Positions 6,660-32,499 of a DNA stretch of 43,789 nucleotides are shown in pieces. Below the pieces are notes generated by a model. That model worked only from the letters and a program-made list of their open reading frames with translations. It searched no databases and had not been told where the DNA came from. The stretch lies in IMG/VR virus record IMGVR_UViG_3300037479_000281; one strand, given 5' to 3'. Both the position numbers and the translations under genes were made by a program. Source of the DNA: a virus. Positions within the stretch are counted from its first letter, which is position 1. Each line of letters starts with the position of its first letter.

Positions 6660-6898
6660 CGTCCCTCCTCGGCCTCGCGCAGAAGCGCCCGCGCCATATT
6701 CACGGCGTCTCGTTCCTTGGTTAATTCATACAGCGTAGCTGACGGATTAGGAATGGAATCGGAGAGAGCGTCGACCAGCTCCCGCGCCACCGGCGCCCAG
6801 CGCGCGGCCTCCTCGCGGCGGGCTGCGGCGGCGCCGGCGACCACCAAATCGATTCGATTGCGGCACTTCGGGCAGCGAAGATCGATGAAGGCGCTCAC
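6656..6898 (-). CDS. Small CxxC protein (about 80 aa)
   Basis: The GTG at 6898 forms a GTGA overlap with the methyltransferase stop; an alternative ATG lies at 6910. A CPKC motif is present. Confidence 0.5.
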   Translation of the reverse strand: MSAFIDLRCPKCRNRIDLVVAGAAAARREEAARWAPVARELVDALSDSIPNPSATLYELTKERDAVNMARALLREAEEGR

Positions 6899-7728
6899 GA
6901 CTCCAGCCATCCTTTCACCGCCTTGGCCAGCGCGCGTCCCATCGGCAACGGCACTCCGTTGGCGACGGCCTTGAGCTTCGTGTCGGCGCGGAACGGCGCG
7001 TCGGCGAGGAAGTCCTCCGGCAGGCCCTGCAACCGGCAGGCGTCAGAGAGCTTGTAGCGGTGCATTCTGACCGCTGCGCCGCCGTCGCTCGATATCACAG
7101 TTCTCGCCTTCACCTTTCCGCTGCCGCCGAGCTTCACCGGCACGGCGCATTTGTCTGCGATGACGGATTGGCGCTTCGCGCGCCGCATCTCGGCCGATGG
7201 CCGCTTGTCGTGCTCTCCGGTGACAGCCGGTTCGCAATCCGGCAGCTCGAAGGTCGCCGTTTCGATCCAACGCCGCAGGTCAACCGGCGTCTCGCCGCGC
7301 ACGCCGAAGCAGAATCGGCGAGTCCGGCTTTGCTCCTGGCCGTAGCCGTCGCCGTCGTTTCCGGGGAGCCAGAGGTTGTTCAGCACGAAGGCATGGACGG
7401 AGTAGCCGGGGACGTTCGCAACCGGAGCCTGCGGCACGTTCTCCATCAGGAACCAGTCGGGATGCGCCTCCGACACGCAGCGCTCGAACTCAGGAATCAG
7501 ATTACCGAAGCGCGGCTCGTAGCCGTTGGCGCGCACGAGATGCGCGAGCGGCGAGAAGCTCTGGCAGGGCGGCCCGCCGATGACGCCTTCGAATCTGCCG
7601 CTCGGAGGATGGAAGTTGCGGATGTCGCCGCCCCAGAGAACGTCGGGCCCACGCACGACGCAGAACTCGAGCTCCTCGAACGCGCGGTCGAGGAGGCCAA
7701 TCCCTGGGAAGAGAGTCAGCACGAGCAT
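6895..7728 (-). CDS. DNA (cytosine-5)-methyltransferase
   Basis: Motif I is LFPGIGLLD (FxGxG), motif IV is GGPPCQSFS (the PCQ catalytic Cys) and motif VI is ENV. The start lies in a GTGATG overlap with the upstream stop. Confidence 0.9.
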   Translation of the reverse strand: MLVLTLFPGIGLLDRAFEELEFCVVRGPDVLWGGDIRNFHPPSGRFEGVIGGPPCQSFSPLAHLVRANGYEPRFGNLIPEFERCVSEAHPDWFLMENVPQAPVANVPGYSVHAFVLNNLWLPGNDGDGYGQEQSRTRRFCFGVRGETPVDLRRWIETATFELPDCEPAVTGEHDKRPSAEMRRAKRQSVIADKCAVPVKLGGSGKVKARTVISSDGGAAVRMHRYKLSDACRLQGLPEDFLADAPFRADTKLKAVANGVPLPMGRALAKAVKGWLES

Positions 7729-8009
7729 CACTCCGCTCCCCAGCTCCCGTCCTCGCTCCGTCGACCGCCCTCACACCGACCCCGATGGCGGCCGAGGTAC
7801 GCATCGATAGCAGCGGCGCCGAGGCCGGCGAAGAAAAGCAAGACAGCGAAGCCGACGGATCCGACCCAGATGGCTCGCTCGATTGCGCCGATCCCAGCCG
7901 GCACGCAGCCGTTGTCCTGCGCGCAGCCAGGCACGAAGAGAATGAGCCCGAGAAGAATGGCCATCGCCAGCGCGTCGATCAGCGTACAGAGCACTTCACG
8001 CGGGGTCAT
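7728..8009 (-). CDS. Small membrane protein with two predicted TM helices (93 aa)
   Basis: A GGAGGAGG RBS precedes the ATG at 8009. Hydrophobic segments are [17 protein letters not shown] and [20 protein letters not shown]. Confidence 0.55.
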
Positions 8010-8862
8010 GTGGCGCCTCCTCCGGCAGCGGATCTTCGGCCGCGCAGCGCCGCAGATCCGCCAACGCGCGCTCCGTCGTCGCAAAGAAATGCGGCGCCGG
8101 CTTGCCTGGTCGCGACGCGCGATAGATGAGCGTCCCGGCACGATGCGGGCCGACCTCTTTCTCTAGCGCCAGGCCGCGCTCGCCGGCGATGACGACAGCC
8201 CAGCCGGCGCGGCAATGCGTGGTGCCGCAATGCCCATCTCGATGCCACGTGGACATGTCGAGCGTGCCGCGCGCCTGATCGCCCTCGACAGCGGAGAGAA
8301 TCGCCGCATCGATGTGCGGAACGATTGGGACGTCGAGCGGCTTCGCGGTGACTTGTTGTGCGAAATCGGGCGGCAGACCTTTCGCGCCTGCCAAGTCCGC
8401 GCCGGCCAAGTACGCGTCGGCCAAGTCCGCGCCGGCCAAGTTCGCGCCGGCCAAGTACGCGCCGGCCAAGTCCGCGTCGGCCAAGTACGCGTCGGCCAAG
8501 TACGCGCGGGCCAAGTTCGCGTCGGCCAAGTCCGCGCCGGCCAAGTTCGCGCCGGCCAAGTACGCGCCGGCCAAGTCCGCGTCGGCCAAGTACGCGTCGG
8601 CCAAGTACGCGCGGGCCAAGTTCGCGTCGGCCAAGTCCGCGCGGGCCAAGTTCGCGCCGGCCAAGTCCGCGCGGGCCAAGTTCGCGCCGGCCAGGTACGC
8701 GCCGGCCAGGTACGCGCGGGCCAGGTTCGCGCACTGAGGCTCCGCATCGCCAGGGTTGTGATGCGGCTTGCTCCGGTCGCGCAGCCAGGCCTGATGCGGA
8801 GCGTACCAGGCGTGCTTCGTCAGGTGATCAGGGATAGGGCCGATGCAGAGGTTTTCGCTCAT
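7996..8862 (-). CDS. Pentapeptide-repeat protein with a Cys/His-containing C-terminal domain (288 aa)
   Basis: There are 23 consecutive A(D/N/Y)LA(G/R/D) pentapeptides. They are followed by a globular domain containing [18 protein letters not shown]. Confidence 0.9.
8386..8730. repeat. 23 phased 15-bp tandem units, including a perfect 2 x 105-bp duplication at 8416..8625
   Basis: Units of the form GYSKGCCARGTNCGC were counted directly. Units 3 to 9 (8416..8520) are identical to units 10 to 16 (8521..8625). Confidence 0.95.
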
Positions 8863-20584: not shown

Positions 20585-20849
20585 AGACTCCTATCAGCGC
20601 CGGCTGAAGCTCGATCGTCTTGCCAAAGAGCTGAGCGATGATTATGAGCGCAACCAGTCTGAATGCGCTCATCGGTGGGTAACTACCATGACCCCTTCCT
20701 GCGCTGAGATTCGTTGCCATGATTGCAATCTCGCAGGTGGGTCAATCTACATCCGTGATGGCCAGTCTATCCAGGATGCGGAAGAGGCTTTCGCTGATCT
20801 TTGCTATTCAGCGATCGAGCGCTTTGGTGGCGAGAGGTTCAAGCCATGA
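20577..20849 (+). CDS. Hypothetical protein upstream of terL, possible small terminase (90 aa)
   Basis: An AGGAGGAG RBS precedes the GTG at 20577. There is an ATGA overlap with terL. Confidence 0.5.
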   Translation: MSEDSYQRRLKLDRLAKELSDDYERNQSECAHRWVTTMTPSCAEIRCHDCNLAGGSIYIRDGQSIQDAEEAFADLCYSAIERFGGERFKP

Positions 20850-22423
20850 CCACCAAGGCCCCGGCGAAGCCGCGCTCCAATGCTGCGCTTCTGCGCGAGG
20901 CCCAGCGCTTGGAGGCCGCGCTCGCCGCGCTTGACCGCCAAGAGCGCCTCAAGCGCACGCGGTTCCTCCCCTCCCAGCAAAAGCTCATCGACGCCTACAA
21001 CGACCCGGCTGTCAAGACCATCCTCTTCCTCGGGGCCAACCAGTCGGGGAAGACCGACGCCTCGGCCCGCTGCCTTTGCGCCACGGCGCTTGGCGTCCAG
21101 CCCTGGGACAACCGGCCGCGTCGCTTTCGGCCGCCGGTTCGGATCGCGGTCCTCCTTGAGGACTACGACAACCACGCCTTCATCTACGCCGAGCAGAAGG
21201 TCATTGAGCTGATGCCGCCGGGGGCCGTCGAGATCATCGAGCGCACCCAGCGGGGAGCCCCGCGGGTCCTGCGTTTTAAGGAGACCGGCTCGACGGTCCA
21301 CCTTTTTACGAAGGACCAGGAGTCCCGGCGGCTCGAGTCGGCGACCTGGCATGAGCTCTACGTCGATGAGCCCTGCGCCCGCTCGGACTTCATCGCTCTC
21401 TCCCGCGGCCTACAGAAGTTCGACGGGAAGACCGTGATGACGATGACACCGCTCTCCGAGCCCTGGATCTTTGACGAGATCTACACCAGGGCTGGGAACC
21501 TCGGGGGCGACAAGGGCTCGATCTTCGCCATCACCACCTTCCCCGACGAGAATAAACAGTCCCAAGGTGGCTACCTCTCCGATGCCGGCGTCGATGAGTT
21601 CCGCGCGAAGATGTCCGAGGAGGAGCGCGAGGCGCGCGTCCATGGCCGCTTCCTGCACCTCCTCGGACGGGTCTATAAGAACTTCGATGAATCGATTCAC
21701 GTTCTGAAGGAGCACCCGGTGCCCGCCGAGGAGCGCTGCCACGGCGTGACGATCGACCCGCACGACCGCTTGCCCTGGGCCATCGCCTGGTTCTATGTGA
21801 CCCCCGGAGGCGACATCGTCTTTTACGATGAGTGGCCGCACGAGGCCTTCGAGGAGATCCGGGACTCGAAATTGGTCGTCAACGATTACGCCAAGATTCT
21901 GAAGGACCATGGGTCGACTGTCTACCGCTTCATGGACCCCAATGCCGGCCGCCGCCGCTCGGTCTTGACCGGCATGACGATCGCCGAGGCGATGCAGGCT
22001 CTCTCCGATGAGGCGAACCCGCTTTTCTTCGAGACCCGCATCAACGACGACCTCCAAGACGGCCATGAGTCCGTGCGCTCCCGCCTGGCCTGGAACAAGG
22101 ATAAGCCGCGCGACCCCTCGAACCAGCCGCGGCTCTACTTCCTCGACTCCTGCCGTAATCTGATCCGCTCCCTGCGCTCTTATATATGGGAGGACTGGCG
22201 CGGAAAGGTTGGGGAGGGGAAGCCGCTGAAAGAGAAGCCGCAGGAGAAGTTCAAGCACTTCCCCGACTGCGTCCGCTATACCTGCATCATGGATCCCCGC
22301 TGGCACACTCTTGGCCGCACTGAGCCACTGCGTCGAGAAGGCAATGTGATCCACTTCCGGCCCGGCTGGGAGGGCGGGGATCTGCGCTGGAAGATCCGCG
22401 AGCGCTTGAGGGCTAAGGCATGA
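20846..22423 (+). CDS. terL: Terminase large subunit
   Basis: Walker A is GANQSGKT and Walker B is ELYVDEP, followed by a C-terminal nuclease-type region. The gene lies immediately upstream of the portal, with an ATGA overlap. Confidence 0.85.
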   Translation: MTTKAPAKPRSNAALLREAQRLEAALAALDRQERLKRTRFLPSQQKLIDAYNDPAVKTILFLGANQSGKTDASARCLCATALGVQPWDNRPRRFRPPVRIAVLLEDYDNHAFIYAEQKVIELMPPGAVEIIERTQRGAPRVLRFKETGSTVHLFTKDQESRRLESATWHELYVDEPCARSDFIALSRGLQKFDGKTVMTMTPLSEPWIFDEIYTRAGNLGGDKGSIFAITTFPDENKQSQGGYLSDAGVDEFRAKMSEEEREARVHGRFLHLLGRVYKNFDESIHVLKEHPVPAEERCHGVTIDPHDRLPWAIAWFYVTPGGDIVFYDEWPHEAFEEIRDSKLVVNDYAKILKDHGSTVYRFMDPNAGRRRSVLTGMTIAEAMQALSDEANPLFFETRINDDLQDGHESVRSRLAWNKDKPRDPSNQPRLYFLDSCRNLIRSLRSYIWEDWRGKVGEGKPLKEKPQEKFKHFPDCVRYTCIMDPRWHTLGRTEPLRREGNVIHFRPGWEGGDLRWKIRERLRAKA

Positions 22424-24564
22424 AAGAGAATCCGATCGTCGCCGATGATCTGAAGATCGGCACCTTCCAGGACTTCAAGGACCACGTCGGGAAGATCATC
22501 ACCCGTGTCAACGGAGACCAGCAGGCTCGCCACGAGTGGCTCGAGCGCCAGGCGCGCTACTACCGACGCCGCTACGCCCGCGAGGGCCGCAATGTCGATG
22601 ACCCCTGGCCCGGCGCCTCCGACATCGTCATCCCGACGATGGACATGTCGATCGACCGGATGAAGGCCACGCTCTCGCGCATGATCTTCACTCGGCCAAT
22701 GGTCGACTTTGTCGCTCGCAAATCCGCGAGCCTCGAGCGGGTCATCAACGCCAGGATCTACTTCGACCACCTATTGAATGAGCGCATCCCGGACTACCGC
22801 GAGCAGGTGATGATCGGGCTCGACCAGATTCTCCAAGACGGCTATTGCGTCTTCAAAGTCATCTGGGACTACCGCACCGAGAAGCAGCAGCACATCCTCA
22901 GGCGTGAAGACCTCCCCAAGGTCTTCCGCATGATGTTCCCTGGTCTTGACGAGGAGGAGGCGGCACGGGAGTCCTTGGACAACCGCCGTTTTCCGCTGGC
23001 CAACTCTGTCCTGAAGCGCTTGATCGACGACAATTTCGAGATCATCGAGGCAAGGATCTCCCGTGAGTTATCCCTCGACCCGGAAGATGAGACGGACAAA
23101 AAGGCGATCCGATCTGTCATCGACTTCCTCAGAAACGGAGAGGAAGAGGTCCGCTACACCACCAAGCAAATCGTCGCCAACAATTCCCGCGTCATTGCCG
23201 TCGACGCCCAGGATTGCATCGTCCCCCCCGGCTCCTTTGATATCCAGGACGCCGAGCGAGTCACTCACCAGATCTTCCTCACCGAGAGCCAGTTCAAGTC
23301 CCGCGCCAAGCACAACGGCTGGAACGAGTCCGCCGCCGAGCTGGTCCTCAACAAGAAGCGCGAAGAGGAGCATTCCACTCGAGGAAGCCGCGAGCGGGAT
23401 AGCATTCTCAACCATTACCGGGACGCCCGGGAGGGGCTTAGTTCCCTCACCACCGATCGGCTCATCAAGATCTGGGAGCACTATTTTTGGCACGACATTG
23501 ACGGTGATGGGGTCCCCGAACGTTGCGTCACGCTGATCCATCCGGGCACGCAAACCGTCTTGAAGGCGCCGCGGCAGATCCCTTACACGCATGGGAACTT
23601 CCCCTTCGTCCAGATCAAGTTCGAGATCAACGAGCCGCGCTTCTTCAGCTCCCGCGGCATCCCTGAGAAGATCGACGACATTGACCGCGAGATAACGATC
23701 CGGCACCGCATGAAGCTCAATAAGCTCGAGATGCTCGTGCCGATGTTCAAGTACAGGATCGGCTCTGGCTTCAGCCCCCACAATATGGTCTTTAAGCCAG
23801 GGACCTGCGTGCCGGTGGGGAACCTCGATGACTTCGATGCGATCCAGTTCCCCGACTTCACCGCCGGGGATCGCTTCGAGGAGAACGATCTCTTCACGCT
23901 CATTCAGCGCTACCTTGGCGGGCTCGACTCCGGCCTCGTTGCACAGGACAACCTGAGCGAGGCGCGCACCGCAACCGAGATTGCCGCGATCCAACGCACG
24001 GCCTCAGAGAGCTTGACCTATAAGGGGCTTATCATCCAGACTGGGATGAAGAAGCTCTACAACATGATCTGGGATCTCGAGAACCAGTACATGCCGAAAG
24101 AGGTCTGGCTCCGGGTGACGGGATCGGAGATGACCCGGCTCACCAAAGAGCAGATTATCGGCGATTTCGAGATCGTTCCCATCGGCACGATTGAGAACAC
24201 TGACTCGGCGGCCGAACGCCAGGCGGCCTTCACCCGGTTCCAGGCGCTGCTCCAGATCGCCCAGCTTGGCCCCGCGGCCCTGGGGCCCGAGTTCCAGATC
24301 GATCTTGGGCAGGCCTTGATGGCCTGGCTGAGGCGCGACAACGCCAACGATGCGCAAGTCATCGTGCGCCAACGCAAGCCGGAGGAGATCGAAGCCCTGA
24401 AGGCCCAGCAGGCTCAGCAGCAAGAACTTGCCCAGCGTGTTGAGGGCAATCAGGGCGTCACCGTCGAGGAGGCCCGCTCGATCATGTCGCAGGCGAAGTC
24501 CAAGATGCCCTTTGGCCCTAGCACCAGGATTTTAGCGAATGCCGGACAGCGACGAGCTGGATAG
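22420..24564 (+). CDS. Portal protein (714 aa)
   Basis: The call rests on size, on position between terL and the scaffold/capsid genes, and on coupling to terL. Confidence 0.75.
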   Translation: MKENPIVADDLKIGTFQDFKDHVGKIITRVNGDQQARHEWLERQARYYRRRYAREGRNVDDPWPGASDIVIPTMDMSIDRMKATLSRMIFTRPMVDFVARKSASLERVINARIYFDHLLNERIPDYREQVMIGLDQILQDGYCVFKVIWDYRTEKQQHILRREDLPKVFRMMFPGLDEEEAARESLDNRRFPLANSVLKRLIDDNFEIIEARISRELSLDPEDETDKKAIRSVIDFLRNGEEEVRYTTKQIVANNSRVIAVDAQDCIVPPGSFDIQDAERVTHQIFLTESQFKSRAKHNGWNESAAELVLNKKREEEHSTRGSRERDSILNHYRDAREGLSSLTTDRLIKIWEHYFWHDIDGDGVPERCVTLIHPGTQTVLKAPRQIPYTHGNFPFVQIKFEINEPRFFSSRGIPEKIDDIDREITIRHRMKLNKLEMLVPMFKYRIGSGFSPHNMVFKPGTCVPVGNLDDFDAIQFPDFTAGDRFEENDLFTLIQRYLGGLDSGLVAQDNLSEARTATEIAAIQRTASESLTYKGLIIQTGMKKLYNMIWDLENQYMPKEVWLRVTGSEMTRLTKEQIIGDFEIVPIGTIENTDSAAERQAAFTRFQALLQIAQLGPAALGPEFQIDLGQALMAWLRRDNANDAQVIVRQRKPEEIEALKAQQAQQQELAQRVEGNQGVTVEEARSIMSQAKSKMPFGPSTRILANAGQRRAG

Positions 24565-24871
24565 CCTCCGCCAAATGGCCGAGCGCTTGAAGCGCTTGGT
24601 CGAGGAGCGCGGCGGGCAGGAGAGCCTGAAGTCGATCCTCGTGGCCCATCTCGACGGGGCCATGCGGCGGCTGATGAAGGTTACCGAGCCGATCGAGTTT
24701 CAACGAATGATCGGCCGCTACCAGGCGGTCATTGCGATCATGGACACGATCTACGGCCAATTGGAGCTCTTCCAGGTCCGGATCGATGAGCTCGAGGCTC
24801 GCAAACGCGAGCAAGAGATGAGCGAGCAGCCACGGCGCATAGAGAGAGGGTTGAAGGACGATGGGTTCTAA
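24539..24871 (+). CDS. Hypothetical coiled-coil protein (110 aa)
   Basis: Sense ORF that overlaps the portal 3' end by 26 nt. Confidence 0.5.
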   Translation: MPDSDELDSLRQMAERLKRLVEERGGQESLKSILVAHLDGAMRRLMKVTEPIEFQRMIGRYQAVIAIMDTIYGQLELFQVRIDELEARKREQEMSEQPRRIERGLKDDGF

Positions 24872-25490
24872 AGTCTTGATCGTTGCGGCCCCACGTTCGG
24901 GCACGCGCTACACGACAGTTCTCCTTGGAAACTGTGGGCTTAACGCCACGCACGAGGTTGTTTTCTCCAAGGACGGCTTCACCCAGTGGCACTCCGATGT
25001 CGATGTCTCCTGGCGCGCCCTGATGCAGCCTGAATCCCTGAGTGGCTGCCAGGTCCTCCACCAGGTGCGGAACCCGCTACGCCAGATCTCAAGCTGGCAA
25101 ACGATGTGCCGCTATACGGTCGAGCGCTATAAGAAAGACCTGAGGCAGGATATGGCCTGGCACCCATTCCAGGAGCTCCTGCCGCTTGGCTGGCCGACGG
25201 CCGCAGTCGCTTACTGGGTCGAGTTCAACCAATTGATCGAGCGGGTCTACCATGCGCCGCCGTTCTTCAAGGTGGAGGAGGCAGAGAGCGCGGTTCCTCT
25301 TGTGGCTCAAATGCTTGGCGTGGAGGTTGACGATGAGACCCTTCGCCTCGCGCTTGAGGCGACGCCCAAGGACACGAACCGTCACCCCGAGCTTCCCCCG
25401 GCAAGCGATCGGATCCTCGAGTGGGACGATCTTCCAGAGAGCGAGTGGAAGGTGAAGGCGAAGGAGCTGGCAGCGAAGTATGGCTATTGA
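24861..25490 (+). CDS. Sulfotransferase-like protein (209 aa)
   Basis: The N-terminal VAAPRSGTRY resembles the 5'-PSB loop (PKSGTT type) and VRNPLRQISSW resembles the 3'-PB motif (RNP.D...S). A GAAGGA RBS is present. Confidence 0.65.
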   Translation: MGSKVLIVAAPRSGTRYTTVLLGNCGLNATHEVVFSKDGFTQWHSDVDVSWRALMQPESLSGCQVLHQVRNPLRQISSWQTMCRYTVERYKKDLRQDMAWHPFQELLPLGWPTAAVAYWVEFNQLIERVYHAPPFFKVEEAESAVPLVAQMLGVEVDDETLRLALEATPKDTNRHPELPPASDRILEWDDLPESEWKVKAKELAAKYGY

Positions 25491-26448
25491 CCCCATGTTT
25501 GGCCTGGGGATCCTCTCCCAGGGCGAGACCATCACGAGCCCTGAGCAGCATCGCTTGATCGCCAAGCGGGCTTGGCTTCAGCTTTGGGACTACCTCTCCC
25601 TCAATGACGAGCATCTCCTGGCCTCGCAGATCCCGGTCCCCTGGTCGCTCGATGAGGACCGAGACTTGAAGCTGCACCTGGACTCAAGCCAGGCGAAATT
25701 GCGCCGCTTCGAGAGCCCCGAGGCGCTCCGCCAGTACATCGTCGGCTCCGAGCGCTACGAGGATGAGCGGATCCTCACGGCCCTGGAGAAGATCCCGAGC
25801 GATTCCCGCTGGCAGCGGATGAACTGGATCCTGAATGAGATCCAGGCCGAGAACCCGCTCTCGATTCTTGACGTTGGCTCGGGCTGGGGCGAGATCGCAT
25901 TTATGCTCGGAGTTTTGAAGCGTAACGTCGTCTCACTGGCGCCAAATCCAGCCGTTCGCCGCATCCTTGAGCCCAAGGTGCGCGATGCGAAGATCAATGT
26001 ACGCTTCGTCGATAAGCTCTTTGAGGAGATTACGCCCAAGGAAGGTGCCTTCGATCTGGTCCTTCTGGGCGAGGTCATCGAGCACGTCCTTGACGACACC
26101 GAGACGCTCCAGAAGGCTTGCCTTCTCGCCCGGCGCACGGTGTTGCTTACAACTCCGGTCGGAAGTTGCGAGCAGGGGTTTCACCCCAATGCTGACTGGC
26201 GTTCACACGATGAGCACCTTCGCGCCTACTCAAGGAAACGCTTTGAGGAGCTTCTCTCAAAGGCTCCTCAATTCCGCACTGTCGGAGATATCCAGGTGAT
26301 CGCCGAGATCGTCGGCCATCGCCAGCAACCCCTCAATTGCTTCTGCGTGAAGCTCAGGAGGATCCGCGATGATTGTGTCCAGCTTGCCGAGAATGGAAAC
26401 GGTCTACGGGACGAAGCCGAAGCCGGGGCCGTCGGCTCACTTCGGTAG
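25480..26448 (+). CDS. Class I SAM-dependent methyltransferase (322 aa)
   Basis: Motif I is ILDVGSGWGEIA. The post-I and motif II/III-like segments are VRFVDKLFEE and FDLVLLGEVIEHV. Confidence 0.8.
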   Translation: MAIDPMFGLGILSQGETITSPEQHRLIAKRAWLQLWDYLSLNDEHLLASQIPVPWSLDEDRDLKLHLDSSQAKLRRFESPEALRQYIVGSERYEDERILTALEKIPSDSRWQRMNWILNEIQAENPLSILDVGSGWGEIAFMLGVLKRNVVSLAPNPAVRRILEPKVRDAKINVRFVDKLFEEITPKEGAFDLVLLGEVIEHVLDDTETLQKACLLARRTVLLTTPVGSCEQGFHPNADWRSHDEHLRAYSRKRFEELLSKAPQFRTVGDIQVIAEIVGHRQQPLNCFCVKLRRIRDDCVQLAENGNGLRDEAEAGAVGSLR

Positions 26449-26623: not shown

Positions 26624-27400
26624 ATGGCAGAAGAAGAGCTTTCTAGCGCCGAGAGCCTTGGCCAAGAGCAGGCCGAGGAGACGAGCCGTGAAGGCGGCGG
26701 CAAAGAGAACACCAACCAACGGTTGAAGCGCCAGCGGGATGCGGCGCGCGTCGAGTTGGCCAACCAGAGCCGAAAGCTTGAAGAGCTGGAGCGCGAGCTT
26801 CAGGGCCTTCGATCTACGATCGGCGAGGTTGGCGCGGCGCGTTCCACCGATCCCAACAAAATGCCCATCGAGCGTCTCGATGAGCTCGCTATGGCCGATA
26901 ACCCCGAGTCGCCTGGCACCGCGAACTTCGCTCTTGTCAAAGCCATGCAGCGACGAGAGCAGGCGCTCCAGAAGCGGATCGAGGAGGCCGAGCGCAAAGC
27001 CGAGGAGCGCATCAAAGCAATTGAGCGCGAGCGCGCCCAAGGCGAGCTTCGATCGGAATTGGTGAGCGTGTTTGGGAAGAAGGTCTTGGACCCGGACAGC
27101 GACCTGCGAACGCTTGCCGATGACTTCTACGGCCAGATCATGGGCCCCAACTTCAAGGAGCATGATCCCCGGGTGGTCAAGCTGGCGTTTTACGAGGCGG
27201 AGCGCCGTCTGGCGGCCAAGAAACCCAAAGCCCAAGAGACCAAAAACAAGGACCAAAAGCCTCCAAGGCCTGAAGACCTTGCCGAGGCCGGAAGCTCGTC
27301 ACTCCCTGACCTTGTCGCTGAGTCCCGGGCGGCGCTCGCCAAGGGCGATGTCCGCGGCTCGATGAGGGCCAAGATGGCGCGCCTCCTCAATTCAAGTTGA
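26624..27400 (+). CDS. Scaffolding protein (258 aa)
   Basis: The protein is highly charged with coiled-coil composition. The gene lies directly upstream of the capsid gene. Confidence 0.7.
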   Translation: MAEEELSSAESLGQEQAEETSREGGGKENTNQRLKRQRDAARVELANQSRKLEELERELQGLRSTIGEVGAARSTDPNKMPIERLDELAMADNPESPGTANFALVKAMQRREQALQKRIEEAERKAEERIKAIERERAQGELRSELVSVFGKKVLDPDSDLRTLADDFYGQIMGPNFKEHDPRVVKLAFYEAERRLAAKKPKAQETKNKDQKPPRPEDLAEAGSSSLPDLVAESRAALAKGDVRGSMRAKMARLLNSS

Positions 27401-27409
27401 GCCTGAGAA

Positions 27410-28327
27410 ATGGCTGGTGGAGCACACACCTTCGGAAAGTGGCGCGACGGGGCGCTGAGGGAAGATGTCACCGATGAGATCTTCCAAATCACACCCACGG
27501 ACACGCCGTTTTACAGCGTCACTGGCGACGCCGATGCTTCAAACCCCATGCACCAGTGGTCCACCCGGGCCCTGGCCGCTCGGGCGGTGAACGCGGTCCA
27601 GGAAGGCGCGAACTACACGACCGTCAACGTCAACCTCCCGACCCGCGTCGGGAACCTGCTTCAGATCCTGCGCAAGCTCGCCTCGGCCTCCTACTCCCTC
27701 CAGGCCTCGACCGCCGTCGGCATCGAGGATGTCATGGCGGACCAATCTGCTGTGGCGCTGACGGAGTGGAAGAACGATTGCGAGTTCAACCTTCTCAAGT
27801 CGACGCTCACAACTGGCAACTCCGATGCGACCGCCCGCAAGATGGGCGGCTATCTCCAGGTTGTCGGGCCGGCCAATAACCGCTTCGACTACAACTCGAG
27901 CGGCACTTTTGGGGAGGACATGTTCATCAGCCTCCTGGAATCCATCTGGTCGGACGGCGGCAAGCCGACCGATGTGCTCGTCAACTCGAAGCTGAAGCGC
28001 AAGATCGGCACCTTCAACTTCTCGGCGACGAAGAACATCCTCGCCGAGGATAAGCGCGTCGTCTCCATCGTCAACGTCCTCGAGACGGACTTTGGCATTG
28101 TCGAGGCGCAACTTTGCCGTGACCTGGGGAATGCCACCGGCACCTACCAGATCGCGGCCTTCGATCGCAGCTTCCTCAAGAAGGCCTGGCTGCGACGCCC
28201 GTCGATCAAGGTCATCCCCGAGACTCGCGATGCGACTGATGCGGTCGTGATCGGCGAGGTGACCTTGGAGTACGGCAACAAGGATGCCCTCGGCCTCCAG
28301 ACCGAGATCCTCCACAACGGTCTCTAA
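27410..28327 (+). CDS. Major capsid protein (HK97-fold, DUF5309/SU10-like by recollection)
   Basis: The call rests on the 305-aa size, on position after the scaffold gene, on the strong terminator or attenuator that follows, and on a conserved N-terminal H.W...L / N...EG pattern. Confidence 0.8.
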   Translation: MAGGAHTFGKWRDGALREDVTDEIFQITPTDTPFYSVTGDADASNPMHQWSTRALAARAVNAVQEGANYTTVNVNLPTRVGNLLQILRKLASASYSLQASTAVGIEDVMADQSAVALTEWKNDCEFNLLKSTLTTGNSDATARKMGGYLQVVGPANNRFDYNSSGTFGEDMFISLLESIWSDGGKPTDVLVNSKLKRKIGTFNFSATKNILAEDKRVVSIVNVLETDFGIVEAQLCRDLGNATGTYQIAAFDRSFLKKAWLRRPSIKVIPETRDATDAVVIGEVTLEYGNKDALGLQTEILHNGL

Positions 28328-28340
28328 CCCTTTCGACGCT

Positions 28341-28377
28341 GCTGGTGGCTGGCCCCCTCCGGCCACCAGCGCTTTTC
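28341..28377 (+). terminator. Rho-independent terminator or attenuator after the capsid gene
   Basis: GCTGGTGGC (28341..28349) pairs with GCCACCAGC (28362..28370) and is followed by GCTTTTC. Confidence 0.7.
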
Positions 28378-28380
28378 ACT

Positions 28381-28824
28381 ATGGAACCAGCTCTCCGATC
28401 TGTTCCGCCCTGTTTCTATCGCTTCGGGGTGATGCAGTCGCATGCCAGCATCCGCACGACGATCGAGAACGTCTCGAAGTCCTGGCGCCGGCTCTACCCT
28501 CTCGAGGTCGATGCCTGCCTGCGGATCGTCGACCACATTCGCCAGTCGCTTCACCGTCCCAATGCCGTCTCGGAGGAGAAACTCACGCTCCTGCGCTCGG
28601 TCAAGACCAACCGCCTAAACGGCGTCATGTGCCACATTTTCGGGCAGCAGTGGGAGCGGGATCCGGTCGTCTCGAAGATCTTCTATGAGGTCTTCGCCAA
28701 GCTCCTCGTCAACGAGAAGTCGGTGCCGATCATCAAGAACCCGGTCTCGGTCCTCGATGGCGCGCACTTTAACGACATTCAAAGCGAGTTCGCCTACCAG
28801 CATTTCATGGAGTCTGCCAAGTGA
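28381..28824 (+). CDS. Hypothetical protein coupled to the glycosyltransferase (about 147 aa)
   Basis: This is the first ATG after the terminator; the ORF-track start at 28345 lies inside the hairpin. There is a GTGA overlap with the GT gene. Confidence 0.5.
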   Translation: MEPALRSVPPCFYRFGVMQSHASIRTTIENVSKSWRRLYPLEVDACLRIVDHIRQSLHRPNAVSEEKLTLLRSVKTNRLNGVMCHIFGQQWERDPVVSKIFYEVFAKLLVNEKSVPIIKNPVSVLDGAHFNDIQSEFAYQHFMESAK

Positions 28825-31208
28825 GGCCGAAGCTTTCGGTGTCGATGATTGTCAAGAACGAGGAGCTGGGCCTGCCCCTGGTGCTCCAGTCGCTTCCAGG
28901 CCAGATCATCGATGAAATTGTCGTCGTTGACACGGGCTCCGAGGATCGCACGGTCCAGGAGGCCAAGGCCTTCGATGCCATGGTCCACCACTACGAGGAC
29001 CCGGATCCGATCGAGATCGATGGCTCGAGATGCCTCTCCGACTTCGCCGCCGCGCGGAACTTTGCTTTCTCAAAGTGCTCGGGCGACTTCATCCTTTGGA
29101 TCGATGGCGATGATTACTTCTTCGGCGCCCAGGAGTTCGCCAGGCACTGGCTGAAACAGATCGACTTCGGACGCACCGGCGTCCTTGGGATGTCCTACGA
29201 CTATGAGCACGATGAGGAGGGCAACTGCATCATGCGCCACCCGCGCGAGCGGATCGTTCGCGCCGGCACGCATGTCTGGCGCAGCCCGATCCACGAGGTG
29301 CTCTGCGCGCTGCGCGTGACTGGCGCCGCTTGGATTCCGCCAGCGCTTGCCCGGATTGTCCACAACGATTGCGGCGAGAACCGCCAAAGGAAGGCCAGGC
29401 GCAATGCCGCGGTCGCCGAGCGCTTCATTGCCCGCTCGGGCAATAACGTCGAGGCGCGGATGTGGCTCAACTATGGGAACTCGCTCGCTTGTTGCGGACG
29501 GCACGATGAAGCCATTGCGGCTTACGAGAAGTACCTCTCCATGAGCAAGTGGCAGGATGAGAAGTACTCCTGTCTCCTCGCTATGGCCAACTGCTACGGC
29601 GCGCTCAACCAAGAGGACCAGAGGATCTTCGCGGTCCTGAAGGCCGTCCACATGCGGCCGGACTACCGGGAGGCCTACCTCGAGCTTGCCGACCTGGCGC
29701 TCCAGATGGGCGACCCGAAGAATGCGATCTTCTGGTCGAACCTCGCCGATGCCCAAGAGAAGAACAATCTCGGCTACAAGGGCAACCCGTTCTTCCTCGA
29801 GAGCCGGGCAGCCGAGGTCCGCATGCACGCTCTCGCCAAAATGAACCGCTTCGAGGAGGCGATCGTCGAAGCCGACAAGCTGCTTGCGACCTATCCGGGG
29901 AATCACCGCGTCCTTGGGAAGAAGACCTTCTGCGCGTGCATGGCGCGCGAGCAGAAGCTGGAGGAGTCCTGGAAACTGATCGAGAACGCGCTCCTTTCAG
30001 ACGGCACGCCAGAGAAGCTGAAAGTCATGCAGCGCTGCGTGCCGGAGCAGCTTCTCGATTCGCCGCTCGTCGAGTTGCCGAGCGCCTCTGGCCGAAAGCC
30101 CGACCAGCCGACGATCGCATTTTACTGCGATGCGAACCTGACTCCCTGGTCCTACGACTCGATCGAGCGCGGCGGGGTCGGTGGCTCCGAGACCGCCGTC
30201 ATCCGCATGGCCGAGGCCCTTGCGGCGATTGGCTGGAATGTCGAGGTCTACGGTTACCCGGAGGAGGGCAAGGAAGGACTTCACAATGGAGTCTGGTGGT
30301 TTCCATTCTGGCGGATCGCGCACGCTCGGCCATTCGATGTCCTCATCAACTGGCGCCGCTGGAGCTTCAAGGCGCAGCCCCCAGCGGCCAAGGTCTCCTA
30401 TGTCTGGTGCCACGACGTTTTGAACCCCTACTACTGGCCCGATGCCTCCTGGCGCCAGTACAAGGGGATCATCGTCCTCTCCGAGGCTCACAAGGCGAAC
30501 GCCGTCGAAGCGGTTCCGATGGAGAAGCTGATCCTCTCCCGGAACGGCCTCGATCCCTCGTTCTGGTCGGGCCCTGAGGTCCCGCGCGACCCGCACCGGC
30601 TGATCTACGCCTCCTGTCCCTCGCGTGGGCTTGTCATCCTCGCGGATCTTTGGCCGCGGATCAAAGCCGAGTTTCCCGACGCCGAGCTGGATGTCTTCTA
30701 CGGCTTCAACAACGTCTTTCTCGATCAGATGCGCCGCTCGCAAGAGCACCGGAACGTTTTCGAGCGAACGCACGAGCTGGCCCGCCAGCGCGGCGTCAAC
30801 TACCACGGCATGGTCGACCAGGCAACCCTTGGGGCGGCCTTTCGGCGCGCTGGGCTCTGGGCCTATCCTTGCACGTTCCCGGAGATCTCCTGCATCACCG
30901 CGATGCAGGCGCAGGCTTGTGGCGCGGTGCCGGTGACGACGAGATTCTGGGCCCTTGACGAGACGGTTCGATATGGCCTACGGGTGGGTGACAAGGATCT
31001 TCGCCTCGATGAGATGGCCCATGGCCCCGAGCTTTGGCTCCGGGCGCTCCGCCGGGCCATGGATCCCGCGTGGCAAGAGACGATCAGAAAGGACATGGTG
31101 CCATGGGCGCAGGCCTTCTTCCCCTGGGAGAAAGTGGCGAGGGAGTGGGATCGGACGTTCAAGCAGGACCTTCGCTATTCGCCGGTGGCTTTGGCCGCCG
31201 TCGCATAG
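28821..31208 (+). CDS. Dual-domain glycosyltransferase: N-terminal GT2 (GT-A), TPR repeats, C-terminal GT4-like (GT-B), 795 aa
   Basis: The GT2 signature is SVSMIVKNEE...EIVVVDTGSEDRT...ARNFAFS...WIDGDD (DxD). The TPR-like helices span about residues 200 to 340. The C-terminal domain has GGVGGSETAV and FPEISCITAMQAQACGAVPVTT...DETV. Confidence 0.85.
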   Translation: MRPKLSVSMIVKNEELGLPLVLQSLPGQIIDEIVVVDTGSEDRTVQEAKAFDAMVHHYEDPDPIEIDGSRCLSDFAAARNFAFSKCSGDFILWIDGDDYFFGAQEFARHWLKQIDFGRTGVLGMSYDYEHDEEGNCIMRHPRERIVRAGTHVWRSPIHEVLCALRVTGAAWIPPALARIVHNDCGENRQRKARRNAAVAERFIARSGNNVEARMWLNYGNSLACCGRHDEAIAAYEKYLSMSKWQDEKYSCLLAMANCYGALNQEDQRIFAVLKAVHMRPDYREAYLELADLALQMGDPKNAIFWSNLADAQEKNNLGYKGNPFFLESRAAEVRMHALAKMNRFEEAIVEADKLLATYPGNHRVLGKKTFCACMAREQKLEESWKLIENALLSDGTPEKLKVMQRCVPEQLLDSPLVELPSASGRKPDQPTIAFYCDANLTPWSYDSIERGGVGGSETAVIRMAEALAAIGWNVEVYGYPEEGKEGLHNGVWWFPFWRIAHARPFDVLINWRRWSFKAQPPAAKVSYVWCHDVLNPYYWPDASWRQYKGIIVLSEAHKANAVEAVPMEKLILSRNGLDPSFWSGPEVPRDPHRLIYASCPSRGLVILADLWPRIKAEFPDAELDVFYGFNNVFLDQMRRSQEHRNVFERTHELARQRGVNYHGMVDQATLGAAFRRAGLWAYPCTFPEISCITAMQAQACGAVPVTTRFWALDETVRYGLRVGDKDLRLDEMAHGPELWLRALRRAMDPAWQETIRKDMVPWAQAFFPWEKVAREWDRTFKQDLRYSPVALAAVA

Positions 31209-31342: not shown

Positions 31343-31546
31343 TTGCGCCAGGTCTTTGGCCAGGCCCTCGTTCCGGCGCACCAGGATGAGCTGAAGCTCC
31401 AGGCGATCCGTGACCACCTCGTCAAGGACTTGGGCCTCACCGACCCCGAGTCCCAGCGGGTGGCGATCCGGCGCCTGCGGCTTGAGAACCCGGCGCGGCG
31501 AAAGCCGGCGCTCGACACCATTTTTGATCGGGTGGCACGCCGATGA
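31343..31546 (+). CDS. Hypothetical protein; the 5' end is unresolved (minimal TTG-started version, 67 aa)
   Basis: There is an ATGA overlap with the downstream gene. The frame is open back to 31208 with protein-like acidic sequence, but there is no ATG/GTG/TTG upstream of 31343. Confidence 0.4.
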   Translation: MRQVFGQALVPAHQDELKLQAIRDHLVKDLGLTDPESQRVAIRRLRLENPARRKPALDTIFDRVARR

Positions 31547-32499
31547 ATGTCTCCTTTGCAGACCTTGTCGAGGCGGTCCGCGAGTTCGTGCAGGCGCCGG
31601 AGACGGTGCTTCCCATCATTCGCCGCGAGGTGAATGCCGAATACAAGCGCCTTGCCCGCAGCGCCAATCTGAGCGAGACTCAGGGCTACCTGAACGAAAG
31701 CGTGGCCCTGGTCTCTGGCCAGGCCTACCTCGCGCTCCCGGGCGATGCGGTCGGGATCGTCTCCATCAGCGATAAGACGAACGAGTTCTCGCTCAGGCGC
31801 AAGGATTTGAAGCACGCGCTCCAGGACGCGGTCTACCGGATCGACACGACAGGCGATGTCCTCTACTACGCCGAGCTCGGCTACCGGGCCACCAAGCGCC
31901 CGCTTTCGGTCAATGATCAGGTGCGGATTCAGGCTTCGGCCGGGCTTACGATCGAGGCGACGGTTCGCGTCCGTGGGCTCCAGGCGACGACGAACATTCC
32001 GACCTTCGACACCCTGACGACGAGCGGCACCTCAGGCGTCGATGGCACCGAGCAATTCCGCCTTGGCTGGTCGATCGACTCGATCGGGACCGATGGAACT
32101 GTCGACGCGGGCTATATCACGATCACCGAGAAGACGACGACAGCCAACGTCCTTGGCTACATTCCAAAGGGCGAGAAGCAATCGCGGTTCTACGTTCTCC
32201 ACCTCGAGAATCCGCCGGATGCCGGCGACAACTTGAATATCGTCTACTTGAAGGGCCTCCGGGATCTCGAGGTCGATGATGATGTGATCGCGATCCCCGA
32301 GATGGCCGAAGCCATCGTCGAGGGAGCTATAGCCAAGATGCGCATGCACGACCGCGCTTACGACCAGGGCGCGATGCACGCTTCAACCGCTCTCCAGCAC
32401 CGCCAAGCCGTTCTCTTTGAACGCGAATCCAAGGGCGAGCAGGGCGCGCACCAAGCGCGACCGGATCTCCGCGGACGAGGTTTCCGCAGGGCCTACTGA
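31543..32499 (+). CDS. Head-tail adaptor / tail tubular A-like structural protein (318 aa)
   Basis: The call is based on position within a podovirus-like gene order only. No motif was recognised. Confidence 0.4.
   Translation: MNVSFADLVEAVREFVQAPETVLPIIRREVNAEYKRLARSANLSETQGYLNESVALVSGQAYLALPGDAVGIVSISDKTNEFSLRRKDLKHALQDAVYRIDTTGDVLYYAELGYRATKRPLSVNDQVRIQASAGLTIEATVRVRGLQATTNIPTFDTLTTSGTSGVDGTEQFRLGWSIDSIGTDGTVDAGYITITEKTTTANVLGYIPKGEKQSRFYVLHLENPPDAGDNLNIVYLKGLRDLEVDDDVIAIPEMAEAIVEGAIAKMRMHDRAYDQGAMHASTALQHRQAVLFERESKGEQGAHQARPDLRGRGFRRAY

Follow-up and report, generated by a model that had tools for sequence, protein, structure and literature searches.

Among tailed phages, glycosylation of the virion is established only for some mycobacteriophages, whose phage-encoded glycosyltransferases (GTs) decorate capsid and tail-tube proteins (PMC12363180, PMC12619734); these papers make no mention of a sulfotransferase in that system. 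In the chlorovirus PBCV-1, the protein A064R combines two GT domains with a methyltransferase that methylates the terminal sugar of the glycan on the capsid protein Vp54, and sulfation is not mentioned in this work either (PMC7019647). For GmaR, the flagellin β-O-GlcNAc transferase of Listeria monocytogenes, the tetratricopeptide repeats (TPRs) have been proposed to bind the protein substrate, flagellin being a self-assembling structural protein (PMC9638930). Sulfotransferase-family genes, for their part, are listed by viromics surveys as viral ‘auxiliary metabolic genes’ (AMGs) without context or function (PMC10829341, PMC12285232), and neither a sulfotransferase gene within a phage head module nor a phage particle bearing sulfate turned up in full-text literature searches. 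The initial annotation of the locus described here had called the combination with sulfation apparently undescribed. The locus lies in IMG/VR virus record IMGVR_UViG_3300037479_000281 (hereafter the window, meaning the whole stretch analysed), a complete-length metagenomic sequence of 43,789 bp from an uncultured SU10-like podophage whose right half is a late operon on the + strand. Inside the head genes of this operon stand the genes of a compact sulfotransferase-fold protein (ST209) and of a class I S-adenosylmethionine (SAM) methyltransferase (MT322), which, together with a downstream glycosyltransferase (GT795), may build and tailor a glycan on the virion itself.

The initial annotation had placed two sense-strand enzyme genes within the portal-scaffold-capsid block, and this description is accurate: the two open reading frames (ORFs), both on the + strand and both starting with ATG, run exactly from 24861 to 25490 (ST209, 209 aa) and from 25480 to 26448 (MT322, 322 aa), flanked by genes for an SU10-type portal at 22420-24564 (+; PF23899 SU10_portal, E=1.5e-21), which forms the upstream edge of the insertion slot, and an SU10-type major capsid protein (MCP, 305 aa) at 27410-28327 (+; PF17236 SU10_MCP, 2.4e-65; phrog_1328, 8.3e-59). 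Positions 11-287 of the 292 in the SU10_MCP model cover residues 13-296 of the MCP. Successive genes overlap, by 26 nt between the portal gene and the small conserved orf110, by 11 nt between orf110 and ST209 and by another 11 nt between ST209 and MT322, which argues for one translationally coupled late operon. A scan of 13.5 kb found two promoter-like sites, both on the opposite strand, and none between orf110, ST209 and MT322. Because the identical ST209-MT322 pair recurs on contigs of two other sequencing runs (SRR12687952, SRR26268935), an assembly artefact is excluded. The ‘dual glycosyltransferase’ that had been noted 2.4 kb downstream is likewise real, as the 795-aa GT795 gene (28821-31208, +), with GT2, TPR and GT4 parts, starts 2.37 kb after the MT322 stop codon.

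Both motifs of the type that binds 3′-phosphoadenosine-5′-phosphosulfate (PAPS), quoted in the initial annotation, are present in ST209. The 5′-phosphosulfate-binding (5′-PSB) loop R12-S13-G14-T15 (24894-24905, +) lies inside APRSGTRY (aa 10-17, 24888-24911), and the 3′-phosphate-binding (3′-PB) motif R70...S78 (25065-25094, +) is part of VRNPLRQISS (aa 69-78). On its own, ST209 found no match in NCBIfam, PHROGs or a word-indexed protein search, and phmmer against the PDB gave noise only; tblastn against GenBank phages returned no match for ST209, nor for MT322, and hence no cultured relative carries either gene. An exhaustive phmmer/HMMER scan of 1.84 billion cluster representatives (E<=1e-3), however, gathered 619 relatives of ST209, most of them ~200 aa long and aligned end to end. 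Nearly all of them carry the label ‘hypothetical protein’ in public sources; one is annotated as NodH-like. Sulfotransfer_3 matches individually in 24 of 91 family members (E<=0.01). A narrow-pattern scan of genome contigs added two short fragments of metagenome-assembled genomes and is uninformative on the cellular distribution of the family.

An alignment of 90 family sequences contains a single invariant residue, R70 (90/90). Near-invariant are G14, G26, H31, E32, S50, H67, P72, S78, N123, E139, N173, G208 and Y209, with counts of 89/90 for H31, 87/90 for E32 and 86/90 for S78; within the PSB loop, R12 is kept in 80, S13 in 72, G14 in 86 and T15 in 73 of the 90 sequences. ST209 itself retains every invariant residue of its family. 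Since the quoted PAPS motifs coincide with invariant or near-invariant columns of this alignment, they are not a product of chance. The family profile, searched against the PDB, retrieved sulfotransferases almost exclusively, led by SULT1A3 (5e-5), Teg14 (1.4e-3) and SgdX2 (4e-3), with SULT1A1, SULT2A1, SULT4A1, CurM-ST, NodH and TPST at lower ranks. It aligns the RSGT of ST209 with the PKSGTT loop of SULT1A3, i.e. the 5′-PSB loop, and R70...S78 with ARNPKDVAVS of the same enzyme and the equivalent 3′-PB segments of Teg14 and SgdX2.

Structure prediction leads to the same superfamily. An AlphaFold model of ST209 built from a multiple sequence alignment reached a mean predicted local distance difference test (pLDDT) of 93.3 and a predicted template modelling score (pTM) of 0.90, compared with a poor pLDDT of 43 for the single-sequence model. 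It places a strand (residues 4-9) before the PSB loop, and a strand (63-69) followed by a helix (72-90) around the PB motif. The top 50 Foldseek matches in the PDB are sulfotransferases throughout (E 1.6e-5 to 1.4e-3, probability 0.99-1.00), and among the viral fold matches in BFVD are proteins of phages and giant viruses that are annotated as sulfotransferases. The proposed sulfotransferase identity thus stands, the profile and Foldseek matches being nearly or wholly sulfotransferases. That ST209 has the sulfotransferase fold is very likely, and it is probably, if a little less surely, an active PAPS-dependent enzyme. The catalytic base in this superfamily is His in the cytosolic SULTs and Glu in TPST and the heparan sulfate (HS) sulfotransferases. 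In ST209, the near-invariant pair H31-E32 (24951-24956, +), ~20 residues past the PSB arginine, is the candidate catalytic dyad and probably provides this base; it may correspond to the catalytic Glu of TPST and HS 3-O-sulfotransferase (3-OST), and an N-terminal sub-profile retrieved NodH only, with H-D aligned and a weak E=0.68. We conclude that, within the superfamily of PAPS-dependent sulfotransferases, ST209 belongs to a remote, compact and uncurated branch and falls in no curated Pfam family.

MT322 is almost certainly a SAM methyltransferase. Its Rossmann core (aa 123-262, 25846-26265, +) matches Methyltransf_23 at 1.4e-10 (41.6 bits, cut-off 27), Methyltransf_11 at 6e-8 (33.7 bits, cut-off 21.2) and Methyltransf_25 at 7.5e-8 (33.4 bits, cut-off 27), and both motifs on which the class I assignment had originally been based are in place, namely motif I, ILDVGSGWG, at aa 129-137 and the acidic motif II region, FDLVLLGEVIEHV, at aa 191-203. 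Twelve full-length metagenomic relatives, 35-46% identical, share the methyltransferase motifs, and L130, G133, F191, D192 and E201 are invariant in 13 relatives. The best match of the MT322 profile in the PDB is the O-methyltransferase UbiG (5.8e-15). Assorted small-molecule methyltransferases are also among the best relatives, and enzymes that O-methylate sugars rank lower, as does WbdD, the terminator of O-antigen chains; the substrate class of MT322 is not readable from sequence. Ahead of the core lies an N-terminal extension (aa 1-110, 25480-25809, +) that is conserved above the level of the catalytic core, with G15, E22, R25, K29, E44, P54 and D60 invariant in the 13 relatives, and to which Pfam, NCBIfam and PHROGs offer no matching family. 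A strikingly conserved block of ~60 residues, FGxGILSQGExIxxPEQHRLxAKRAWLQLWDYLxxNDE...PVPWSL, is common to the relatives. Through this extension, MT322 may dock onto the procapsid or onto GT795.

The third enzyme, GT795, combines a GmaR-like GT2 domain (aa 6-132, 28836-29216, +; Glycos_transf_2, 4.8e-15), a TPR region (~aa 185-365, 29373-29915, +; TPR_14, TPR_8 and TPR_2 above threshold) and a GT4-type GT-B domain (~aa 453-782, 30177-31166, +; weak Glyco_trans_1_4 and Glyco_transf_4). Because it carries a GT4-type domain in addition to the GT2 domain, the protein is predicted to add two sugars. PHROG matches are phrog_13126 (1.3e-36) and phrog_2170 (1.1e-9). The closest solved relative of its GT2 domain is GmaR (E=5e-12 over aa 1-99, with IDGDD aligned to the IDADE of the DxD motif), followed by peptide S-glycosyltransferases of the SunS type (SunS itself 2.4e-3 over aa 3-250), and NCBIfam gave a weak match to the SunS family. 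From this homology and the position beside the MCP gene, a protein or peptide acceptor would be expected. None of the three enzymes has a hydrophobic segment fitting a membrane helix, and all carry a negative net charge (-6, -8 and -10 for ST209, MT322 and GT795, respectively).

The arrangement was compared in related phages, found as contigs carrying MT322 relatives; five are independent, and two of these end early at one side. The portals of L001 and L002 are 39-46% identical to that of the window, and their GTs are 40% identical to GT795 over the full length. Where the window has orf110, ST209 and MT322, followed by the scaffold, the MCP, the small orf130 and GT795, L001 encodes a portal, a 115-aa protein, a sulfotransferase (34% identical to ST209), a 61-aa protein and a methyltransferase, and then scaffold, MCP, a 143-aa protein and a 793-aa GT. 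Two further lineages, L002/L003 and L071, have portal, an ORF of ~111 aa and methyltransferase without a sulfotransferase, ahead of scaffold, MCP, a small ORF (131 and 123 aa, respectively) and a GT (794 and 814 aa). L072 carries two methyltransferases (335 and 331 aa) separated by a 123-aa ORF between portal and scaffold, followed by MCP, a 139-aa ORF and a GT of 822 aa, whereas L073 has portal, a 111-aa ORF, two sulfotransferases (217 and 220 aa), methyltransferase, scaffold and MCP before the contig ends. The methyltransferase is thus present in 6/6 lineages, the GT2-TPR-GT4 protein in 5/5 where the contig reaches it, and the sulfotransferase in 3/6, with 0, 1 or 2 copies, which makes the interval from portal to methyltransferase a gain-and-loss hot-spot for tailoring enzymes. 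Within this phage clade, the GT and one methyltransferase form the core and the sulfotransferase is accessory, so that the earlier picture of the sulfotransferase as a fixed part of the module has to be given up.

Two of these contigs deserve comment in their own right. In L072 (6691-8996), the portal-to-scaffold slot holds a tandem duplication of MT322-family methyltransferases. In L073 (1102-2404), the two sulfotransferase paralogues score E ~1e-33 against the family profile, RGGT replaces RSGT, and one of them has RYE for GHE.

A more distant relative, the Manatee Spring podophage L004 (MW202718.1, 27536-36367), shares an MCP-GT pair 33-34% identical to that of the window, and its late operon contains three further GTs and two other, unrelated methyltransferases. 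Carrying genes for glycan synthesis among the structural genes is therefore a broader feature of this group of environmental podophages.

The wider sulfotransferase family is tied to the same partners. Its members are fused behind a GT2 domain (P0049, P0052), ahead of one (L026:4995-6779, 595 aa), or ahead of a GT2 and a TPR region (P0105); the GT2 parts of P0105 and GT795 are homologous (E=2e-7). At L025:1553-5887, a 416-aa fusion of sulfotransferase and class I methyltransferase is preceded by a 1028-aa protein joining GT1 and methyltransferase domains. A census of the 134 ORFs within two genes of a family member, at ~36 distinct IMG/VR loci, counted as the leading families methyltransferases of the Methyltransf_11/23/25 (6), Methyltransf_24 (6) and FkbM (3) families, together with GT2 (5), GT1/4 (3-4), Sulfotransfer_3 (2), one DegT sugar aminotransferase and one APS (adenosine 5′-phosphosulfate) kinase. 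In L032 (4532-5501), the sulfotransferase gene begins within the APS-kinase-like ORF (P-loop GQSSAGKTT, LDGDE) that precedes it; as APS kinase is the PAPS-forming enzyme, this phage seems to come with a PAPS source of its own. The family also occurs on a bacterial chromosome of 3.85 Mb, where its neighbours are a GT-C of the AftD type, a GT1, an O-acyltransferase (Acyl_transf_3-SGNH) and a sugar epimerase. Together, the fusions, the neighbour census, this cell-wall cluster and the annotation data support a carbohydrate acceptor and a coupling to methyltransferases and GTs.

Capsid genes are recurrent neighbours as well. In L007, a Mu-gpT-like MCP and a cement protein are followed by the sulfotransferase, a 422-aa ORF and a methyltransferase; in its relative L009, the same two structural genes precede the sulfotransferase and then a GT; and in L015 the order is portal, S49 protease, HK97-fold MCP and sulfotransferase. 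The initial statement that sulfotransferases are very unusual in phage structural operons was consequently too strong, given members on ~50 IMG/VR contigs and capsid-adjacent copies in two other lineages. Its proposal of a GT-linked pathway for a methylated and/or sulfated glycan, by comparison, gains support from the fusions with GT2 and methyltransferase domains, from the methyltransferase and GT neighbours and from the layout in the five relatives.

How might the three enzymes work together? In the scheme we favour, the GmaR-like GT2-TPR part of GT795 would bind a structural protein of the virion through its TPRs and attach the first O-linked sugar, the acceptor most likely being the neighbouring MCP. 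The C-terminal GT4 domain would add a further sugar, MT322 would O-methylate the glycan with SAM, and ST209 would O-sulfate it with PAPS from the host. The module would be expressed late, act in the cytoplasm and be embedded in the head-morphogenesis operon of this SU10-like podophage, and turnover in the slot (0-2 sulfotransferases, 1-2 methyltransferases) would diversify the surface glycan. That the trio cooperates on one glycan is, in our judgement, probable. For the glycan to sit on a virion protein, most simply the MCP, the balance is about even, and the same middling confidence applies to the complete reading of a virion-protein glycan tailored by both methylation and sulfation. A virion-protein acceptor, the first of the targets named in the initial annotation, is favoured because the GT2 domain resembles GmaR and SunS, because the genes lie among the head genes in all relatives, because sulfotransferase genes adjoin the capsid genes of unrelated phages and because the three enzymes are net acidic and free of membrane segments. 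The analysis shows the folds and motifs of the enzymes, the conserved synteny, the domain fusions and the enrichment among neighbours; from these we infer the acceptor, the order of the steps, the chemistry of the sugars and any biological benefit, e.g. shielding or a changed surface charge of the particle.

Several observations speak against this scheme. ST209 stays below the gathering scores of Pfam, with 16.7 bits for Sulfotransfer_3 (E=0.009, cut-off 27), confined to the N-terminal P-loop, and 11.6 bits for Sulfotransfer_1 (cut-off 22). The Pfam search suggested with the initial annotation accordingly bore out MT322, which scores above gathering, and not ST209, so the sulfotransferase call rests on family-level and fold evidence. 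The sulfotransferases matched by the protein exceed it in length by about 40-120 residues, which accounts for its moderate Foldseek TM-scores of 0.37-0.56, and no third PAPS-binding element was recognized towards its C-terminus. As no PAPS-synthesis gene was found in the window phage, the activity of ST209 depends on the host. On the side of the acceptor, the MCP ends nine residues past the SU10_MCP model (aa 296 of 305) and has no obvious Ser/Thr-rich C-terminal tail of the kind seen in glycosylated mycobacteriophage capsids, its richest Ser/Thr window being 6/15 at aa 131-145, and a tblastn search of 50,697 GenBank phage records with GT795 matched 16 records, no mycobacteriophage among them. 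Gene position, finally, is circumstantial evidence for an acceptor, and the case, which concerns an uncultured phage, is made wholly in silico.

The enzymes could instead modify a glycan of the host envelope, be it O-antigen, capsule, exopolysaccharide (EPS) or wall polysaccharide, late in infection, thereby masking the receptor and preventing either the trapping of progeny on debris or superinfection. This would suit the presence of the sulfotransferase family in a cell-wall polysaccharide cluster on a bacterial chromosome, the PHROGs class of the GT families (‘moron, auxiliary metabolic gene and host takeover’) and the similarity between the variable tailoring genes and O-antigen diversification; moreover, a depolymerase-like right-handed β-helix protein encoded at 377-1306 (+; PF13229, 4.4e-7) suggests a polysaccharide receptor. 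We nevertheless regard it as unlikely, if worth keeping in mind, since ST209, MT322 and GT795 lack transmembrane segments and are encoded within the late head operon, since the ORFs that Pfam could name include no integrase, and since the solved enzymes closest to the GT2 domain have proteins or peptides, rather than lipid-linked glycans, as their acceptors. Gtr-type seroconversion modules, which are membrane-associated, located near the integrase and attachment site of temperate phages and expressed from the prophage, were considered as a specific form of this idea and down-weighted because of the missing membrane segments, the lack of a detectable integrase and the late-operon position.

Hypermodification of the phage DNA, i.e. 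bases that are glycosylated and then methylated or sulfated to evade restriction, would place the acceptor elsewhere altogether. The window does encode a C5-cytosine DNA methylase at 6895-7731 (-; PF00145, 2.3e-17), and members of the sulfotransferase family occur next to a Tet/JBP dioxygenase and ParB_N on a low-GC IMG/VR contig (L016:5414-7612) as well as among GTs and a PD-(D/E)XK nuclease (L010). As the L016 context is typical of post-replicative DNA hypermodification, part of the family may act on modified DNA bases. GT clusters for DNA hypermodification have also been reported near structural genes (Pyle et al.), which, like L016, is a point against a virion acceptor, and sulfotransferase-containing DNA-modification systems have been predicted computationally (Iyer et al. 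2013, cited in PMC10829341). For the window, however, Pfam gave no Tet_JBP or thymidylate-synthase-like match among 20 early-region ORFs, nor among the named ORFs of L001, L002 and L004, and a tblastn search with the L016 Tet/JBP protein reached a best E of 0.18 in the window and found nothing in the same three relatives. The C5-methylase lies 17 kb from ST209 on the opposite strand, whereas known clusters keep methyltransferase, dioxygenase and GT adjacent; GT795 is GmaR-like with TPRs, and the trio is net acidic, unlike the positively charged DNA GTs. DNA-related contexts, moreover, account for only 1-2 of ~50 viral loci. With no dioxygenase found and a GmaR-like, TPR-containing GT, DNA hypermodification was down-weighted and appears improbable.

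It is a little less probable still that ST209 sulfates a protein side chain directly, such as a Tyr or Ser/Thr of a scaffold or capsid protein, as TPST and RaxST do, without any involvement of the GT. Human TPST1 gives the best query-normalised TM-score in the PDB (5wrj_C, 0.56), appears weakly in the family profile search (E=0.71) and belongs to enzymes that, as we presume, combine an RSGT PSB loop with an invariant Glu ~20 residues downstream (R78 and E99 in TPST2). Against this, HS 3-O-sulfotransferase reaches a similar TM-score (0.50), the only, and weak, match of the N-terminal sub-profile was to a carbohydrate sulfotransferase, NodH (E=0.68), and the fusions and neighbours tie the family to GTs, sugar aminotransferases and polysaccharide clusters. 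Least credible of all is that ST209 has the fold without being a sulfotransferase, as a degenerate or repurposed P-loop protein, kinase-like or a structural accessory, for its sub-threshold Pfam scores, short length, moderate TM-scores and absence from half of the related phages are set against strict conservation of precisely the PAPS-contacting positions (R12-S-G-T and R70...S78), an APS kinase neighbour in L032 and paralogous Sulfotransfer_3 neighbours that argue for real sulfotransfer, and a viral fold list in which nucleotide kinases come only far down.

The remaining genes around the insertion fit a podophage head operon, all on the + strand. The operon includes TerL (20801-22423), identified by Pfam and PHROG scans of the window ORFs. 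The portal is followed in every relative by a conserved small gene, in the window orf110 (110 aa, 24539-24871), which has no match in Pfam, PHROG or NCBIfam; L071, L072 and L073 each have a homolog of ~111-123 aa at the equivalent place (phmmer 6e-8 to 8e-7), and ORFs of 114-115 aa lie there in L001 and L002. A charged, coiled-coil-like ORF of 258 aa (26624-27400), directly upstream of the MCP gene, is scaffold-like by position and composition only, having no significant family match in Pfam or PHROGs, and shows weak homology to the same-position ORF of L002. Thirteen nt past the MCP stop codon starts a hairpin (28340-28371) with a 13-bp stem, nine G-C pairs and a T-rich tail; it is terminator-like or may be an attenuator that keeps the expression of GT795 below that of the capsid protein, although terminator-like sites are no more numerous across this region than in shuffled sequences. 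Because of this hairpin, we prefer the shorter start (28432) for the next ORF. This conserved orf130 (~130 aa, 28432-28824), located between the MCP and GT genes and called with 130 aa in an identical Logan contig, has no Pfam or PHROG match; ORFs of 123-143 aa fill the slot in L001, L002, L071 and L072, and its product could be a decoration protein, a partner of the GT or the real glycan acceptor. Behind GT795, an SU10-adaptor-like protein (31543-32499) leads into the tail genes, a region in which the PHROGs scan gave no matches. Across the contig ends, the late operon runs on into the gene of the β-helix protein, probably a tailspike or depolymerase, near the left end. On the - strand, a pentapeptide-repeat protein (7996-8862; PF00805, 6.5e-25) is encoded beside the C5-methylase and possibly has a DNA-mimicking or anti-restriction role.

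Should a tailored virion glycan be confirmed, virion glycosylation would be far more widespread than now appreciated and would reach environmental podophages with SU10-type heads. O-methyl groups and negatively charged sulfate would enrich the chemistry of the coat, with consequences for the charge of the particle, for how it adsorbs to mucus, EPS or minerals, for grazing, and for how hosts or immune systems recognize it; glycosylation is a shield against antibodies for actinobacteriophage virions. Its evolution would proceed through the exchange of tailoring genes in the manner of cassettes. In its boldest form, which we put forward tentatively and consider rather doubtful as a whole, the locus would represent the first bacteriophage with a sulfated and methylated glycoprotein coat, made by a mobile sulfotransferase-methyltransferase-GT cassette that was recruited independently beside the capsid genes in at least three unrelated lineages (SU10-like, Mu-gpT-like and HK97-like) and diversifies by gain and loss like O-antigen loci. 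In that form, virion glycosylation would extend beyond actinobacteriophages to phages of the environment at large, and the sulfotransferase superfamily would gain a new, mainly viral branch of compact proteins (~200 aa). Whatever the acceptor, an unannotated family of compact sulfotransferases, often fused to methyltransferase or GT domains, has been delimited with 619 cluster representatives. It is attractive for glycoengineering, and its members are missed by viromics pipelines or lumped together as generic ‘AMGs’.

Set beside characterized sulfotransferases such as NodH, Stf0, HS 3-OST and TPST, ST209 shares the fold and both PAPS motifs, and its RSGT loop and the His-Glu pair ~20 residues on resemble the NodH/TPST/HS-sulfotransferase branch, if the residue roles are what we take them to be; at 209 aa, it compares with ~220-330 aa for those enzymes. 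Phage clusters for DNA hypermodification, consisting of C5-methyltransferase, 5-methylcytosine dioxygenase and GTs, likewise employ GT-A and GT-B enzymes from envelope-glycan pathways and sometimes lie near structural genes (Burke 2021, Pyle 2023/24), but in the window the C5-methylase is distant, the GT is GmaR-like and contains TPRs, and a dioxygenase or hydroxymethylase was not found. GmaR has the same order of GT2 domain and TPRs as GT795, its C-terminal half, however, being the MogR anti-repressor where the phage-encoded GT795 has a GT4-type GT-B domain. A064R of PBCV-1 follows the same logic of two GT activities plus a methyltransferase, as virus-encoded cytoplasmic machinery for the glycan of the virus's own MCP, albeit in a eukaryotic giant virus with atypical N-linked glycans and with the methyltransferase fused rather than encoded separately as in the window.

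Closest in concept are the mycobacteriophages Che8, Corndog and Myrna, in which phage GTs put O-linked glycans on the phage's own virion proteins, just as proposed here. Those phages are siphoviruses and myoviruses of Actinobacteria, whereas the window stems from an SU10-like podophage; their glycans sit on C-terminal extensions of capsid and tail-tube proteins, of which the MCP of the window shows no obvious counterpart; and GT795 has no detectable homology to their GTs (Che8 gp110/Corndog gp38), so that the likeness is functional at most and not one of descent. Virion glycosylation as such is therefore the known concept, and what the window adds to it is the GmaR-like enzyme, the predicted tailoring by methyl and sulfate groups, and a recurrent, hitherto undescribed cassette of sulfotransferase, methyltransferase and GT.

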